From the sequence record PP430150.1: a stretch of 6,424 nt of DNA; one strand, written 5' to 3'. The DNA is from Enterobacteria phage FfLilac. Positions within the stretch are counted from its first letter, which is position 1; each line of letters starts with the position of its first letter. The notes under the pieces were generated by a model. It did no database searches. It saw only the letters and a program-made list of their open reading frames with translations, and was not told where the DNA came from. Positions 1 to 6,424 of the stretch are shown piece after piece. Both the position numbers and the translations under genes were made by a program.

Positions 1-78
1 CGGCGCATTAAGCGCGGCGGGTGTGGTGGTTACGCGCAGCGTGACCGCTACACTTGCCAGCGCCCTAGCGCCCGCTCC
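1..78 (+). other. Morphogenetic packaging signal (PS, hairpin A) of an Ff phage, immediately downstream of the gene IV stop
   Basis: GC-rich imperfect inverted repeat (gcgcattaagcgcggcgggtgtggtggttacgcgcagcg / cgctacacttgccagcgccctagcgcc) that I recognise as the f1/M13 sequence following gene IV. Boundaries approximate. Confidence 0.7.
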
Positions 79-79
79 T

Positions 80-240
80 TTCGCTTTCTTCCCTTCCTTT
101 CTCGCCACGTTCGCCGGCTTTCCCCGTCAAGCTCTAAATCGGGGGCTCCCTTTAGGGTTCCGATTTAGTGCTTTACGGCACCTCGACCCCAAAAAACTTG
201 ATTTGGGTGATGGTTCACGTAGTGGGCCATCGCCCTGATA
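80..240 (+). promoter_or_regulatory. Minus-strand (complementary strand) origin region, where host RNA polymerase makes the primer (hairpins B/C)
   Basis: Sequence matches my recollection of the f1 origin segment (ctttcttcccttcctttctcgccacgttcgccggctttccccgtcaagctctaaatcgggggctccctttagggttccgatttagtgctttacggcacctcgacc). Position between PS and the plus origin fits Ff architecture. Boundaries approximate. Confidence 0.55.
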
Positions 241-261
241 GACGGTTTTTCGCCCTTTGCC

Positions 262-420
262 GTTGGAGTCCAACGTTCTTTAATATTGGACTCTTGTTCC
301 AAACTGGAACAACACTCACAACTAACTCGGCCTATTCTTTTGATTTATAAGGATTTTTGTCATTTTCTGCTTATTGGTTAAAAAATAAGCTGATTTAACA
401 AATATTTAACGCGAAATTTA
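262..420 (+). promoter_or_regulatory. Plus-strand origin: nicking hairpin (stem 266-273/286-293), pII-binding hairpin (stem 295-301/307-313), then the A/T-rich enhancer (domain B)
   Basis: Perfect 8-bp inverted repeat gagtccaa...ttggactc around the loop cgttctttaata, which contains the conserved ctttaat/a nick context (predicted nick between 284 and 285). Second inverted repeat ttgttcc-aaact-ggaacaa. Downstream A/T-rich tract up to ~420. Confidence 0.7.
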
Positions 421-434
421 ACAAAACATTAACG

Positions 435-463
435 TTTACAATTTAAATATTTGCTTATACAAT
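435..463 (+). promoter_or_regulatory. Putative sigma70 promoter for gene II (-35 tttaca 435-440, 17-bp spacer, -10 tacaat 458-463)
   Basis: Near-consensus hexamers with 17-bp spacing, ~45 nt upstream of the gene II ATG at 507. Position agrees with the known gene II promoter in the Ff intergenic region. Confidence 0.55.
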
Positions 464-506
464 CATCCTGTTTTTGGGGCTTTTCTGATTATCAACCGGG
501 GTACAT

Positions 507-1739
507 ATGATTGACATGCTAGTTTTACGATTACCGTTCATCGATTCTCTTGTTTGCTCCAGACTTTCAGGTAATGACCTGATAGCCTTTGTAGACCTCT
601 CAAAAATAGCTACCCTCTCCGGCATGAATTTATCAGCTAGAACGGTTGAATATCATATTGACGGTGATTTGACTGTCTCCGGCCTTTCTCACCCGTTTGA
701 ATCTTTGCCTACTCATTACTCCGGCATTGCATTTAAAATATATGAGGGTTCTAAAAATTTTTATCCCTGCGTTGAAATTAAGGCTTCACCAGCAAAAGTA
801 TTACAGGGTCATAATGTTTTTGGTACAACCGATTTAGCTTTATGCTCTGAGGCTTTATTGCTTAATTTTGCCAACTCTCTGCCTTGCCTGTATGATTTAT
901 TGGATGTTAACGCTACTACCATTAGTAGAATTGATGCCACCTTTTCAGCTCGCGCCCCAAATGAAAATATAGCTAAACAGGTTATTGACCATTTGCGAAA
1001 TGTATCTAATGGTCAAACTAAATCTACTCGTTCGCAGAATTGGGAATCAACTGTTACATGGAATGAAACTTCCAGACACCGTACTTTAGTTGCATATTTA
1101 AAACATGTTGAACTACAGCACCAGATTCAGCAATTAAGCTCTAAGCCATCCGCAAAAATGACCTCTTATCAAAAGGAGCAATTAAAGGTACTGTCTAATC
1201 CTGACCTGTTGGAATTTGCTTCCGGTCTGGTTCGCTTTGAGGCTCGAATTAAAACCCGATATTTGAAGTCTTTCGGGCTTCCTCTTAATCTTTTTGATGC
1301 AATTCGCTTTGCTTCTGACTATAATAGACAGGGTAAAGACCTTATTTTTGATTTATGGTCATTCTCGTTTTCTGAACTGTTTAAAGCATTTGAGGGGGAT
1401 TCAATGAATATTTATGACGATTCCGCAGTATTGGACGCTATCCAGTCTAAACATTTTACAATTACCCCCTCTGGCAAAACTTCCTTTGCAAAAGCCTCTC
1501 GCTATTTTGGTTTCTATCGTCGTCTGGTTAATGAGGGTTATGATGCTGTTGCTCTTACCATGCCTCGTAATTCCTTTTGGCGTTATGTATCTGCATTAGT
1601 TGAGTGCGGTATTCCTAAATCTCAATTGATGAATCTTTCCACCTGTAATAATGTTGTTCCGTTAGTTCGTTTTATTAACGTAGATTTTTTCTCCCAACGT
1701 CCTGACTGGTATAATGAGCCAGTTCTTAAAATCGCATAA
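507..1739 (+). CDS. II: Gene II protein, rolling-circle replication initiator (site-specific nickase), 410 aa
   Basis: ORF 507..1739 (ATG to TAA). Translation MIDMLVLRLPFIDSLVCSRLSGNDLIAFVDLSKIATLSGMNLSAR... is recognisably Ff pII, with correct length and position after the origin. Confidence 0.95.
   Translation: MIDMLVLRLPFIDSLVCSRLSGNDLIAFVDLSKIATLSGMNLSARTVEYHIDGDLTVSGLSHPFESLPTHYSGIAFKIYEGSKNFYPCVEIKASPAKVLQGHNVFGTTDLALCSEALLLNFANSLPCLYDLLDVNATTISRIDATFSARAPNENIAKQVIDHLRNVSNGQTKSTRSQNWESTVTWNETSRHRTLVAYLKHVELQHQIQQLSSKPSAKMTSYQKEQLKVLSNPDLLEFASGLVRFEARIKTRYLKSFGLPLNLFDAIRFASDYNRQGKDLIFDLWSFSFSELFKAFEGDSMNIYDDSAVLDAIQSKHFTITPSGKTSFAKASRYFGFYRRLVNEGYDAVALTMPRNSFWRYVSALVECGIPKSQLMNLSTCNNVVPLVRFINVDFFSQRPDWYNEPVLKIA
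1404..1739 (+). CDS. X: Gene X protein, the in-frame C-terminal 111 aa of pII made from an internal start
   Basis: Internal ATG at 1404-1406 (codon 300 of gene II) begins MNIYDDSAVLDAIQ... and is in frame to the gene II stop. Established Ff nested gene. Confidence 0.8.
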   Translation: MNIYDDSAVLDAIQSKHFTITPSGKTSFAKASRYFGFYRRLVNEGYDAVALTMPRNSFWRYVSALVECGIPKSQLMNLSTCNNVVPLVRFINVDFFSQRPDWYNEPVLKIA

Positions 1740-1750
1740 GGTAATTCAAA

Positions 1751-2014
1751 ATGATTAAAGTTGAAATTAAACCATCTCAAGCGCAATTTACTACCCGTTC
1801 TGGTGTTTCTCGTCATGGCAAGCCTTATTCACTGAATGAGCAGCTTTGTTACGTTGATTTGGGTAATGAATATCCGGTGCTTGTCAAGATTACTCTCGAC
1901 GAGGGTCAGCCAGCGTATGCGCCTGGTCTGTACACCGTGCATCTGTCCTCGTTCAAAGTTGGTCAGTTCGGTTCTCTTATGATTGACCGTCTGCGCCTCG
2001 TTCCGGCTAAGTAA
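1751..2014 (+). CDS. V: Gene V protein, single-stranded DNA-binding protein, 87 aa
   Basis: ORF 1751..2014. Translation MIKVEIKPSQAQFTTRSGVSR.GKPYSLNEQLCYVDLGNEYPVLVKITLDEGQPAYAPGLYTVHLSSFKVGQFGSLMIDRLRLVPAK matches Ff g5p. A GG-containing Shine-Dalgarno (taaggtaa) lies upstream. Confidence 0.95.
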   Translation: MIKVEIKPSQAQFTTRSGVSRHGKPYSLNEQLCYVDLGNEYPVLVKITLDEGQPAYAPGLYTVHLSSFKVGQFGSLMIDRLRLVPAK

Positions 2015-2486: not shown

Positions 2487-3776
2487 GTGAAAAAATTATT
2501 ATTCGCAATTCCTTTAGTTGTTCCTTTCTATTCTCACTCCGCTGAAACTGTTGAAAGTTGTTTAGCAAAACCTCATACAGAAAATTCATTTACTAACGTC
2601 TGGAAAGACGACAAAACTTTAGATCGTTACGCTAACTATGAGGGCTGTCTGTGGAATGCTACAGGCGTTGTGGTTTGTACTGGTGACGAAACTCAGTGTT
2701 ACGGTACATGGGTTCCTATTGGGCTTGCTATCCCTGAAAATGAGGGTGGTGGCTCTGAGGGTGGCGGTTCTGAGGGTGGCGGTTCTGAGGGTGGCGGTAC
2801 TAAACCTCCTGAGTACGGTGATACACCTATTCCGGGCTATACTTATATCAACCCTCTTGACGGCACTTATCCGCCTGGTACTGAGCAAAACCCCGCTAAT
2901 CCTAATCCTTCTCTTGAGGAGTCTCAGCCTCTTAATACTTTCATGTTTCAGAATAATAGGTTCCGAAATAGGCAGGGTGCATTAACTGTTTATACGGGCA
3001 CTGTTACTCAAGGCACTGACCCCGTTAAAACTTATTACCAGTACACTCCTGTATCATCAAAAGCCATGTATGAAGCTTACTGGAACGGTAAATTCAGAGA
3101 CTGCGCTTTCCATTCTGGCTTTAATGAGGATCCATTCGTTTGTGAATATCAAGGCCAATCGTCTGACCTGCCTCAACCTCCTGTCAATACTGGCGGCGGC
3201 TCTGGTGGTGGTTCTGGTGGCGGCTCTGAGGGTGGCGGCTCTGAGGGTGGCGGCTCTGAGGGTGGCGGTTCTGAGGGTGGCGGTTCTGAGGGTGGCGGTT
3301 CCGGTGGCGGCTCCGGTTCCGGTGATTTTGATTATGAAAAAATGGCAAACGCTAATAAGGGGGCTATGACCGAAAATGCCGATGAAAACGCGCTACAGTC
3401 TGACGCTAAAGGCAAACTTGATTCTGTCGCTACTGATTACGGTGCTGCTATCGATGGTTTCATTGGTGACGTTTCCGGCCTTGCTAATGGTAATGGTGCT
3501 ACTGGTGATTTTGCTGGCTCTAATTCCCAAATGGCTCAAGTTGGTGACGGTGATAATTCACCTTTAATGAATAATTTCCGTCAATATTTACCTTCTTTGC
3601 CTCAGTCGGTTGAATGTCGCCCTTATGTCTTTGGCGCTGGTAAACCATATGAATTTTCTATTGATTGTGACAAAATAAACTTATTCCGTGGTGTCTTTGC
3701 GTTTCTTTTATACGTTGCTACCTTTATGTATGTATTTTCGACGTTTGCTAACATACTGCGTAATAAGGAGTCTTAA
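2487..3776 (+). CDS. III: Gene III protein, minor coat and adsorption protein (N1-linker-N2-linker-CT), GTG start, 429 aa
   Basis: The ORF track opens at a TTG (2457). The authentic start is GTG at 2487-2489, preceded by ggag (2473-2476), giving signal peptide [18 protein letters not shown] and mature [17 protein letters not shown]... Two glycine-rich linkers and the C-terminal membrane anchor ...[26 protein letters not shown] are present. Stop TAA at 3774-3776. Confidence 0.93.
2742..2801 (+). repeat. Four tandem 15-bp units (gagggtggYggYWct) encoding the first glycine-rich linker of pIII (EGGGS x3 + EGGGT)
   Basis: Direct read: gagggtggtggctct / gagggtggcggttct / gagggtggcggttct / gagggtggcggtact, in frame with gene III. 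Confidence 0.9.
3192..3323 (+). repeat. Tandem 12- and 15-bp units encoding the second glycine-rich linker of pIII (GGGS x3, EGGGS x5, GGGS, GSG)
   Basis: Direct read: three 12-bp GGGS units (3192-3227), five 15-bp gagggtggcggYtcY units (3228-3242, 3243-3257, 3258-3272, 3273-3287, 3288-3302), then ggtggcggctcc ggttccggt. Confidence 0.9.
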
Positions 3777-3778
3777 TC

Positions 3779-4117
3779 ATGCCAGTTCTTTTGGGTATTC
3801 CGTTATTATTGCGTTTCCTCGGTTTCCTTCTGGTAACTTTGTTCGGCTATCTGCTTACTTTCCTTAAAAAGGGCTTCGGTAAGATAGCTATTGCTATTTC
3901 ATTGTTTCTTGCTCTTATTATTGGGCTTAACTCAATTCTTGTGGGTTATCTTTCTGATATTAGCGCACAATTACCCTCTGATTTTGTTCAGGGCGTTCAG
4001 TTAATTCTCCCGTCTAATGCGCTTCCCTGTTTTTATGTTATTCTCTCTGTAAAGGCTGCTATTTTCATTTTTGACGTTAAACAAAAAATCGTTTCTTATT
4101 TGGATTGGGATAAATAA
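3779..4117 (+). CDS. VI: Gene VI protein, minor coat protein, 112 aa
   Basis: ORF 3779..4117. Its ATG lies 2 nt after the gene III stop, with Shine-Dalgarno aaggag (3765-3770) inside the end of gene III. Hydrophobic translation MPVLLGIPLLLRFLGFLLVTLFGYLLTFLKKGFGKIAIAISLFLALIIGLNSILVGYL... matches Ff pVI. Confidence 0.93.
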   Translation: MPVLLGIPLLLRFLGFLLVTLFGYLLTFLKKGFGKIAIAISLFLALIIGLNSILVGYLSDISAQLPSDFVQGVQLILPSNALPCFYVILSVKAAIFIFDVKQKIVSYLDWDK

Positions 4118-5166: not shown

Positions 5167-6424
5167 TTTTGTTTTCTTGATGTTTGTTTCATCATCTTCT
5201 TTTGCTCAAGTAATTGAAATGAATAATTCGCCTCTGCGCGATTTCGTGACTTGGTATTCAAAGCAAACAGGTGAATCTGTTATTGTCTCACCTGATGTTA
5301 AAGGTACAGTCACTGTATATTCCTCTGACGTTAAGCCTGAAAATTTACGCAATTTCTTTATCTCTGTTTTACGTGCTAATAATTTTGATATGGTTGGCTC
5401 TAATCCTTCCATAATTCAGAAATATAACCCAAATAGTCAGGATTATATTGATGAATTGCCATCATCTGATATTCAGGAATATGATGATAATTCCGCTCCT
5501 TCTGGTGGTTTCTTTGTTCCGCAAAATGATAATGTTACTCAAACATTTAAAATTAATAACGTTCGCGCAAAGGATTTAATAAGGGTTGTAGAATTGTTTG
5601 TTAAATCTAATACATCTAAATCCTCAAATGTATTATCTGTTGATGGTTCTAACTTATTAGTAGTTAGCGCCCCTAAAGATATTTTAGATAATCTTCCGCA
5701 ATTTCTTTCTACTGTTGATTTGCCAACTGACCAGATATTGATTGAAGGATTAATTTTCGAGGTTCAGCAAGGTGATGCTTTAGATTTTTCCTTTGCTGCT
5801 GGCTCTCAGCGCGGCACTGTTGCTGGTGGTGTTAATACTGACCGTCTAACCTCTGTTTTATCTTCTGCGGGTGGTTCGTTCGGTATTTTTAACGGCGATG
5901 TTTTAGGGCTGTCAGTTCGCGCATTAAAGACTAATAGCCATTCAAAAATATTGTCTGTGCCTCGTATTCTTACGCTTTCAGGTCAGAAGGGTTCTATTTC
6001 TGTTGGCCAGAATGTCCCTTTTATTACTGGTCGTGTAACTGGTGAATCTGCCAATGTAAATAATCCATTTCAGACAATTGAGCGTCAAAATGTTGGTATT
6101 TCTATGAGTGTTTTTCCCGTTGCAATGGCTGGCGGTAATATTGTTCTGGATATTACTAGCAAGGCCGATAGTTTGAGTTCTTCTACTCAGGCAAGTGATG
6201 TTATTACTAATCAAAGAAGTATTGCGACAACGGTTAATTTGCGTGATGGTCAGACTCTTTTACTCGGTGGCCTCACTGATTATAAAAACACTTCTCAGGA
6301 TTCTGGCGTACCGTTCCTGTCTAAAATCCCTTTAATCGGCCTCCTGTTTAGCTCCCGCTCTGATTCTAACGAGGAAAGCACGTTATACGTGCTCGTCAAA
6401 GCAACCATAGTACGCGCCCTGTAG
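5144..6424 (+). CDS. IV: Gene IV protein, outer-membrane secretin for phage export, 426 aa precursor
   Basis: The ORF track opens at an upstream in-frame ATG (5105). The authentic start is ATG 5144-5146, preceded by aaagg, giving signal peptide MKLLNVINFVFLMFVSSSSFA and mature QVIEMNNSPLRDF... The start overlaps the end of gene I by 23 nt. TAG stop at 6422-6424 is the last codon of the window. Confidence 0.93.
   Translation: MKLLNVINFVFLMFVSSSSFAQVIEMNNSPLRDFVTWYSKQTGESVIVSPDVKGTVTVYSSDVKPENLRNFFISVLRANNFDMVGSNPSIIQKYNPNSQDYIDELPSSDIQEYDDNSAPSGGFFVPQNDNVTQTFKINNVRAKDLIRVVELFVKSNTSKSSNVLSVDGSNLLVVSAPKDILDNLPQFLSTVDLPTDQILIEGLIFEVQQGDALDFSFAAGSQRGTVAGGVNTDRLTSVLSSAGGSFGIFNGDVLGLSVRALKTNSHSKILSVPRILTLSGQKGSISVGQNVPFITGRVTGESANVNNPFQTIERQNVGISMSVFPVAMAGGNIVLDITSKADSLSSSTQASDVITNQRSIATTVNLRDGQTLLLGGLTDYKNTSQDSGVPFLSKIPLIGLLFSSRSDSNEESTLYVLVKATIVRAL

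Follow-up and report, generated by a model that had tools for sequence, protein, structure and literature searches.

The FfLilac genome and its plus-strand origin

The stretch of DNA analysed here (the window) is the whole 6,424-nt genome of FfLilac (PP430150.1), the fifth F-specific inovirus from wastewater in the collection of Quinones-Olvera et al. (PMC11015023, Table S1). It is a complete Ff inovirus genome whose numbering opens just 3' of the gene IV stop codon, and 10 of its 10 genes are intact. By whole-genome megablast it is 99.0% identical to fd, FfIris, and Copypasta and about 97% identical to f1 and M13, and among the Ff phages it belongs to the fd lineage. Its gene III carries a 15-nt in-frame insertion at 3216-3230, which adds one GGTGGCGGCTCTGAG (GGGSE) tandem repeat to the second glycine-rich linker of pIII, so that FfLilac pIII has 429 aa and 5.5 repeat copies, compared with 424 aa in other Ff phages.

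For comparison, eight reference genomes (fd, FfIris, Copypasta, f1, M13, FfAmethyst, FfViolet, and FfLavender) were rotated to the FfLilac start and aligned, with V00604.2, J02448, and J02451.1 as the records of M13, f1, and fd strain 478 (fd-478) respectively. Exact look-ups of pII sequences contributed 15 further contigs, consisting of nine of the fd clade, five of the FfLavender group, and one M13mp/lacZ vector (L023) that was discarded; counts of variable columns given below cover 23 Ff sequences. An exact look-up of FfLilac's own pII in assemblies found no contig. Among the references, FfViolet (PP430151.1; L006) has lost 19 nt close to the gene IV end, at the equivalent of 6327-6345, and the resulting frameshift replaces the C-terminal ~30 residues of its secretin pIV (419 aa vs. 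426).

The FfLilac plus-strand origin follows the packaging signal and the minus-strand origin in the region that separates gene IV from gene II, and its cognate pII is encoded directly downstream. We carried the published origin map, which is in M13 numbering (PMC5405960), to FfLilac coordinates via the alignment (Table 1). The pII cleavage motif GTTCTTT/AATA (PMC11962056) occupies 275-285 in the hairpin loop and is nicked between 281 and 282, and the inverted repeat that follows the hairpin is the same as in fd, f1, and M13, all Ff sequences being alike there except for G303 in FfIris. Domain A is followed by an A/T-rich Domain B with IHF-like cores, putative binding sites that lie within the published footprints.

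Table 1. Origin-related features of the FfLilac genome in window coordinates.
Feature	Position	Strand	Basis and remarks
Packaging signal and minus-strand origin part of the intergenic region	1..265	+	f1/M13-type sequence; continues the mosaic block begun in gene IV
Nick-site hairpin	266..293	+	Stem 266-273/286-293; loop 274-285 (CGTTCTTTAATA); private +A272 and G286T
Domain A, core origin	269..320	+	M13 5769-5819 (PMC5405960)
pII nick	281/282 (T281-A282)	+	M13 5780/5781
pII-binding inverted repeat TTGTTCC-AAACT-GGAACAA	294-312	+	Alignment; directly 3' of the hairpin, in Domain A
Domain B, replication enhancer, fd-type allele	321..411	+	M13 5820 to about 5910 (PMC5405960)
Primary IHF footprint (I)	326..358	+	M13 5825-5857 (PMC5405960); IHF-like core, minus strand, 333-345
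Hypervariable spacer between IHF footprints	359..386	+	Site of the f1/M13 palindrome GCCGATTTCGGC (here GTCATTTTCTGC); private T374
Equivalent of the M13mp lacZ insertion point	369/370 (in spacer)	+	M13 5868/5869 (PMC5405960)
Secondary IHF footprint (II)	387..443	+	M13 5886-5942 (PMC5405960); IHF-like cores 396-408 and 419-431
Gene II, initiator pII	507..1739	+	Translation; pX start 1404; Met40 at 624-626; Pfam PF05144 and PF05155; exact match WZB35659.1
Gene V, ssDNA-binding protein and gene II translational repressor	1751..2014	+	Exact match WZB35661.1 (FfLilac)
Gene IV 3' end, left part of the f1/M13-type mosaic block	6119..6424	+	Left junction within 6119-6145

Divergence and constraint in the replication enhancer

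The initial annotation described the first 258 nt as identical to f1/M13 and the enhancer as a cluster of substitutions. Both descriptions hold: positions 1-258, with the packaging signal and minus-strand origin, show no difference from M13 and a single one from f1 (position 204), and the distance to M13 is concentrated further downstream, with 17 substitutions in the 152 nt of 319-470 vs. three differences in the 318 nt upstream (Fisher p = 1e-6), all three of them in 259-318 (C260, an extra A at 272, and T286). Across the FfLilac genome, just 3.4% of 152-nt windows are this divergent from M13. The ccgatttcgg element is indeed absent, as the f1/M13 sequence GCCGATTTCGGC is replaced by GTCATTTTCTGC at 359-370, and the delta-repeat end of Domain A also differs from f1/M13 at 319-320; the overall architecture, the spacing, the nick site, and the IHF-like cores are the same as in the f1/M13 origin.

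The novelty that this description implied for the enhancer bases, by contrast, disappears once fd is taken as the reference. Over 319-470, which spans Domain B and the distal end of Domain A, FfLilac is identical to fd J02451.1 at 151 of 152 nt, the sole difference being T374, and its enhancer allele is common to 12 fd-clade sequences, namely fd, FfIris, Copypasta, and nine fd-clade contigs from metagenomic and SRA assemblies. The region is thus the fd-type allele of Domain B, with GTCATTTTCTGC in place of GCCGATTTCGGC, and the differences are an effect of using f1/M13 as the reference for an fd-lineage phage rather than new substitutions; this allele has been known since fd was sequenced and is textbook material. 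Phage fd-478 likewise shares the nick motif, the gene II leader, and the pII-binding inverted repeat, and FfLilac departs from it by +A272, G286T, C260, and T374, and by f1/M13-type bases upstream (1-259 and the last 306 nt of gene IV). The palindrome GCCGATTTCGGC itself is specific to f1/M13, with an imperfect version in FfAmethyst and FfViolet and none in the FfLavender group. An fd-type 26-mer was not found by exact scans of metagenome and genome collections, and was present in one IMG/VR contig only, which matches fd over the inspected 254-nt origin stretch.

Related origins were also encountered outside Ff genomes. A tiny sewage plasmid of Klebsiella variicola (p14_KVTMDU, NZ_CP151201.1, 1452 bp; L012) contains an fd-type core origin and Domain B, with origin matches at 1053-1235 and 1322-1383 and 97% identity to FfLilac 267-450. 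Its origin segment extends from the nick hairpin to a second, partial copy of the nick site (AATAGTGGACTCTT), beyond which lies a stretch that matches the minus-origin region at 87%, and its sole ORF encodes a REP_ORF2-G2P (PF23343) Rep, not a pII-type initiator. Origins of the f1 type (~95% identity to FfLilac 1-444) occur in records of unrelated phages, i.e., OR474059.1 (lambda), OR848931.1 (Listeria phage LM 4-14-1), and OR845556.1 (Escherichia phage ECO95 1-6-1), and likewise in two IMG/VR contigs (L010 and L011); the flanks look like cloning-vector sequence and these cases are probably contamination.

Relaxed constraint, one of the causes offered for the uneven divergence, is supported by the rates. 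Compared with M13, divergence is 0.112 in 319-470, close to the 0.106 at four-fold degenerate sites of the genes, and only 0.009 in 1-318, which diverges about 12 times more slowly than 319-470. The corresponding values for FfLavender are 0.230, 0.307, and 0.031; as the enhancer diverges somewhat less than the four-fold sites in this comparison, it is not fully unconstrained. Across the 23 Ff sequences, 36% of the columns in Domain B are variable, with the highest proportion of any segment in the spacer between the IHF footprints (54%) and 21% in each footprint, compared with 4% in the packaging signal and minus origin, 5% in the gene II promoter/leader, and 0% in the nick hairpin when FfLilac is left out. 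Four IHF-like cores, at 333(-), 396(+), 419(+), and 444(-), each have one mismatch to the consensus WATCAANNNNTTR (the minus-strand core at 333-345 reads AATCAAAAGAATA). They are kept in both the fd and the M13 alleles, and at 403 and 427, where these two alleles differ, the consensus has a degenerate N.

We therefore consider it very probable that the clustering of differences reflects uneven constraint and that the enhancer evolves at a roughly neutral rate; the missing palindrome falls in the hypervariable spacer. On this reading, most enhancer positions, above all those of the IHF spacer, drift nearly neutrally with only the IHF-like cores kept, and the packaging signal, minus origin, and core origin upstream are under strong purifying selection. 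The fd-type enhancer itself presumably works as it does in fd, in IHF-assisted initiation by pII. The enhancer finding in its original form thus matters little, as the divergence from f1/M13 reflects weak constraint.

Mosaic structure and alternative sources of the contrast

A recombination breakpoint near 259 had been offered as another cause of the contrast. Of the 16 informative sites between 6146 and 191, counted across the genome start, 15 group FfLilac with f1 and not with fd (fd-478 differs from FfLilac and M13 at 113, 146, 189, and 191), and the block is flanked by fd-type sites at 6118 and 319. Its maximum chi-square of 96.5 was reached in 0 of 300 permutations, and FfIris and Copypasta gave the same result. 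A control that is independent of fd agrees: FfLilac and f1 differ at 59 of 952 positions in gene IV 5167-6118 vs. 2 of 306 in 6119-6424 (p = 1e-5), whereas fd vs. f1 is uniform across gene IV (58 of 952 vs. 12 of 306), as are all comparisons with FfLavender. In neighbour-joining trees of the block, FfLilac, FfIris, and Copypasta join f1 and M13 with 88% bootstrap support and fd falls outside with 95%, an fd clade receiving 0%; the rest of the genome recovers the fd clade and the M13 clade with 100% each. The f1/M13-type block is also present in the fd-clade contigs L013-L020, and is absent from fd-478 and L021.

This f1/M13-type mosaic block, from ~6119 across the genome start to 192-318 in FfLilac, FfIris, and Copypasta, is real, and its right junction interval, 2% of the genome, contains both position 259 and the nick site 281/282. 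Within 1-318, the recombination signal consists of four informative sites only, and site 260 is discordant: it is C in the FfLilac/FfIris/Copypasta subclade and in FfLavender and A elsewhere, and has no clean place in a recombination scenario. The topology of the block tree favours transfer from an f1/M13-like donor to the ancestor of FfLilac, FfIris, and Copypasta. In such an old event, this common ancestor would have swapped the segment reaching from the gene IV end up to the core of the origin for f1/M13-type sequence. One homologous crossover in gene IV may have produced a heterodimeric replicative form, and the right junction may then have arisen at the nick site, if pII initiated at one origin of the heterodimer and terminated at the other; the same two-origin logic of initiation and termination is used in nanorod cassettes (PMC11962056).

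Other small mosaic patches were seen in this group. The Logan contig L022 (SRR31800160) is another mosaic around the origin, at the equivalents of 113-327 and 6109-6283, with fd-478-type bases at 113, 191, and 260 and M13-type bases at the gene IV end; its enhancer is fd-type except for an FfLavender-type patch at 323-327. In 3185-3455 and 5248-5848, FfLilac is the same as fd-478, and FfIris and Copypasta carry M13-clade bases. Furthermore, 9 of the 14 private synonymous sites of FfLilac carry the FfLavender-group base, unlike all other fd-clade sequences and mostly unlike the M13 clade too (1256, 1903, 2858, 3284, 3542, 3713, 3719, 3952, and 5692, plus 374 in the enhancer spacer). Five of the nine cluster in 3284-3952; such agreement looks to be beyond chance and may stem from retained ancestral states or from a patch derived from an unsampled lineage.

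Recombination helps to explain why 1-259 is exactly identical to M13, and is a second, smaller part of the contrast. That it is the entire cause, with an M13-type left part and an fd-type right part under equal constraint, is very unlikely despite the reality of the block and the inclusion of 259 in its junction interval, and the main contrast does not depend on it, since lineages that lack the block show the same contrast: fd differs from M13 at 4 positions in 1-318 vs. 18 in 319-470, and FfLavender differs from FfLilac at 10 of 318 vs. 35 of 152, in both cases without a recombination signal. The density of variable columns also differs about tenfold between the segments among the 23 sequences. 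The proposal of a breakpoint near 259 thus has support, although the uneven divergence does not mainly stem from it. An artefact has still less in its favour. Cloning-vector f1 origins do contaminate many records, but sequencing or assembly errors, or laboratory engineering that left a vector-type origin, are next to inconceivable for an allele seen repeatedly in isolates and assemblies that are independent and come from several countries, in a genome with ten intact genes, a wild-type Met40, and no lacZ or other insert.

Uneven constraint also accounts for the data better than an enhancer allele adaptively tuned to its lineage and co-evolving with pII or its regulators, which we regard as slightly less probable again than recombination alone. 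Such tuning has a precedent in the known compensators of enhancer defects, i.e., pII M40I, pV changes (gene V Arg-to-Cys), and gene II operator mutations (PMC5405960), and the fd lineage did gain several changes to T in the spacer: of ten fd-specific derived changes, nine lie within 353-427 and six are changes to T, a pattern that selection on A/T-tract bending, and not drift, could have produced. However, enhancer divergence matches the synonymous rate, and the candidate partners hardly differ. R274S is the sole pII difference between the fd-type and M13-type lineages, Met40 is invariant (it is Met in FfLilac, as the initial annotation had read), pV is identical between the two lineages, and the gene II leader/operator region 444-506 differs at position 465 only. 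In these alignments pII does not co-vary with the enhancer allele and there is no sign of the enhancer co-evolving with the initiator; with the IHF-like cores conserved as well, the lineage-specific tuning that had been suggested is not supported. The private pII, pX, and pV changes of FfLilac are absent from other carriers of its enhancer allele. Nor does FfLilac match an enhancer-defective origin of the M13mp type with a compensating initiator. In M13mp/M13KE vectors the enhancer is interrupted, at a lacZ insertion point that corresponds to the variable spacer of FfLilac, and pII Met40Ile compensates for it, whereas in FfLilac Domain B is continuous, residue 40 is Met, and the operator region 470-506 is wild type and the same as in fd and M13, so that there is nothing to compensate.

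The nick-site hairpin and the FfLilac initiator

The only FfLilac-specific feature near the 318-470 region is a variant of the nick-site hairpin. The canonical 34-nt segment GTTGGAGTCCACGTTCTTTAATAGTGGACTCTTG is invariant in all of the other 22 Ff sequences, even in the FfLavender group with its divergence of about 10%. In FfLilac the hairpin reads GAGTCCAA-CGTTCTTTAATA-TTGGACTC, with an extra A at 272 and G286T, i.e., an insertion 9-10 nt 5' of the nick and a G-to-T change at +5. The two changes convert stem pair 8 from C:G to A:T and lengthen the loop from 11 to 12 nt, and the 8-bp stem is kept. Even IKe (Lineavirus), whose pII is only 60% identical, has the stem and loop length of the canonical Ff hairpin: its 8-bp stem is GAGTCCAC/GTGGACTC, its 11-nt loop ends in TTTAATA, and TCTTGTT lies downstream, whereas IKe and Ff show no sequence relationship in the 5' half of the loop, the downstream repeats, or the enhancer. 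PEar6 gave no match to the nick-site pattern used. No sequence in the comparison other than FfLilac departs from the canonical stem pair 8 and loop length, and exact-pattern scans of viral, metagenome, and genome contigs found neither the variant hairpin nor its single-step intermediates.

Compensation between the two changes in the stem is plausible, though not proven, from DNA folding predictions, in which the canonical hairpin has -7.4 kcal/mol and the FfLilac double variant -6.5, compared with -5.1 and -5.2 for the single changes. The observed insertion ranks 3rd among 82 insertion products on the G286T background, and the observed substitution 8th among 87 on the insertion background. This energy-only test of compensation is weak, as 26% of all insertion-plus-substitution doubles are equally stable, mostly through hits in the loop. 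Origin activity is reported to fall to 0.01% or less when Domain A is altered by insertions or deletions, and M13 5785, the counterpart of position 286, belongs to the recognition sequence of pII (PMC5405960). That an isolate with both a Domain A insertion and G286T is viable is therefore mildly surprising.

FfLilac also has private changes in the replication proteins, all unique among the 23 Ff sequences: S347A (codon 1545-1547, AGT to GCT, two nucleotides) and S395F (1689-1691) in pII/pX, and Q22H in pV (codon 1814-1816), which adjoins R21 and differs from the described compensating Arg-to-Cys changes of gene V. The positions of all three vary between genera. A BLAST-based site table had listed S347A as common to L022 and the FfLavender group, which translation showed to be a gap artefact (AGC vs. 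GCT). It is conceivable, although we think it unlikely, that FfLilac carries a co-adapted replication module made up of a compensated nick hairpin, S347A and S395F in pII/pX, and Q22H in pV; the link between the hairpin change and these substitutions is speculative.

For the Ff phages as a group, these results mean that natural genomes are mosaics, with one junction interval that holds the pII nick site. A junction at this site would fit chimera formation in which initiation at one origin and termination at another resolve heterodimers. The FfLilac origin offers a natural allele for asking what pII needs around the nick. If the hairpin and protein changes are linked, FfLilac would represent a natural initiator-origin pair with shifted requirements, and it would also supply the first natural covariation evidence for selection on the nick-hairpin stem itself.
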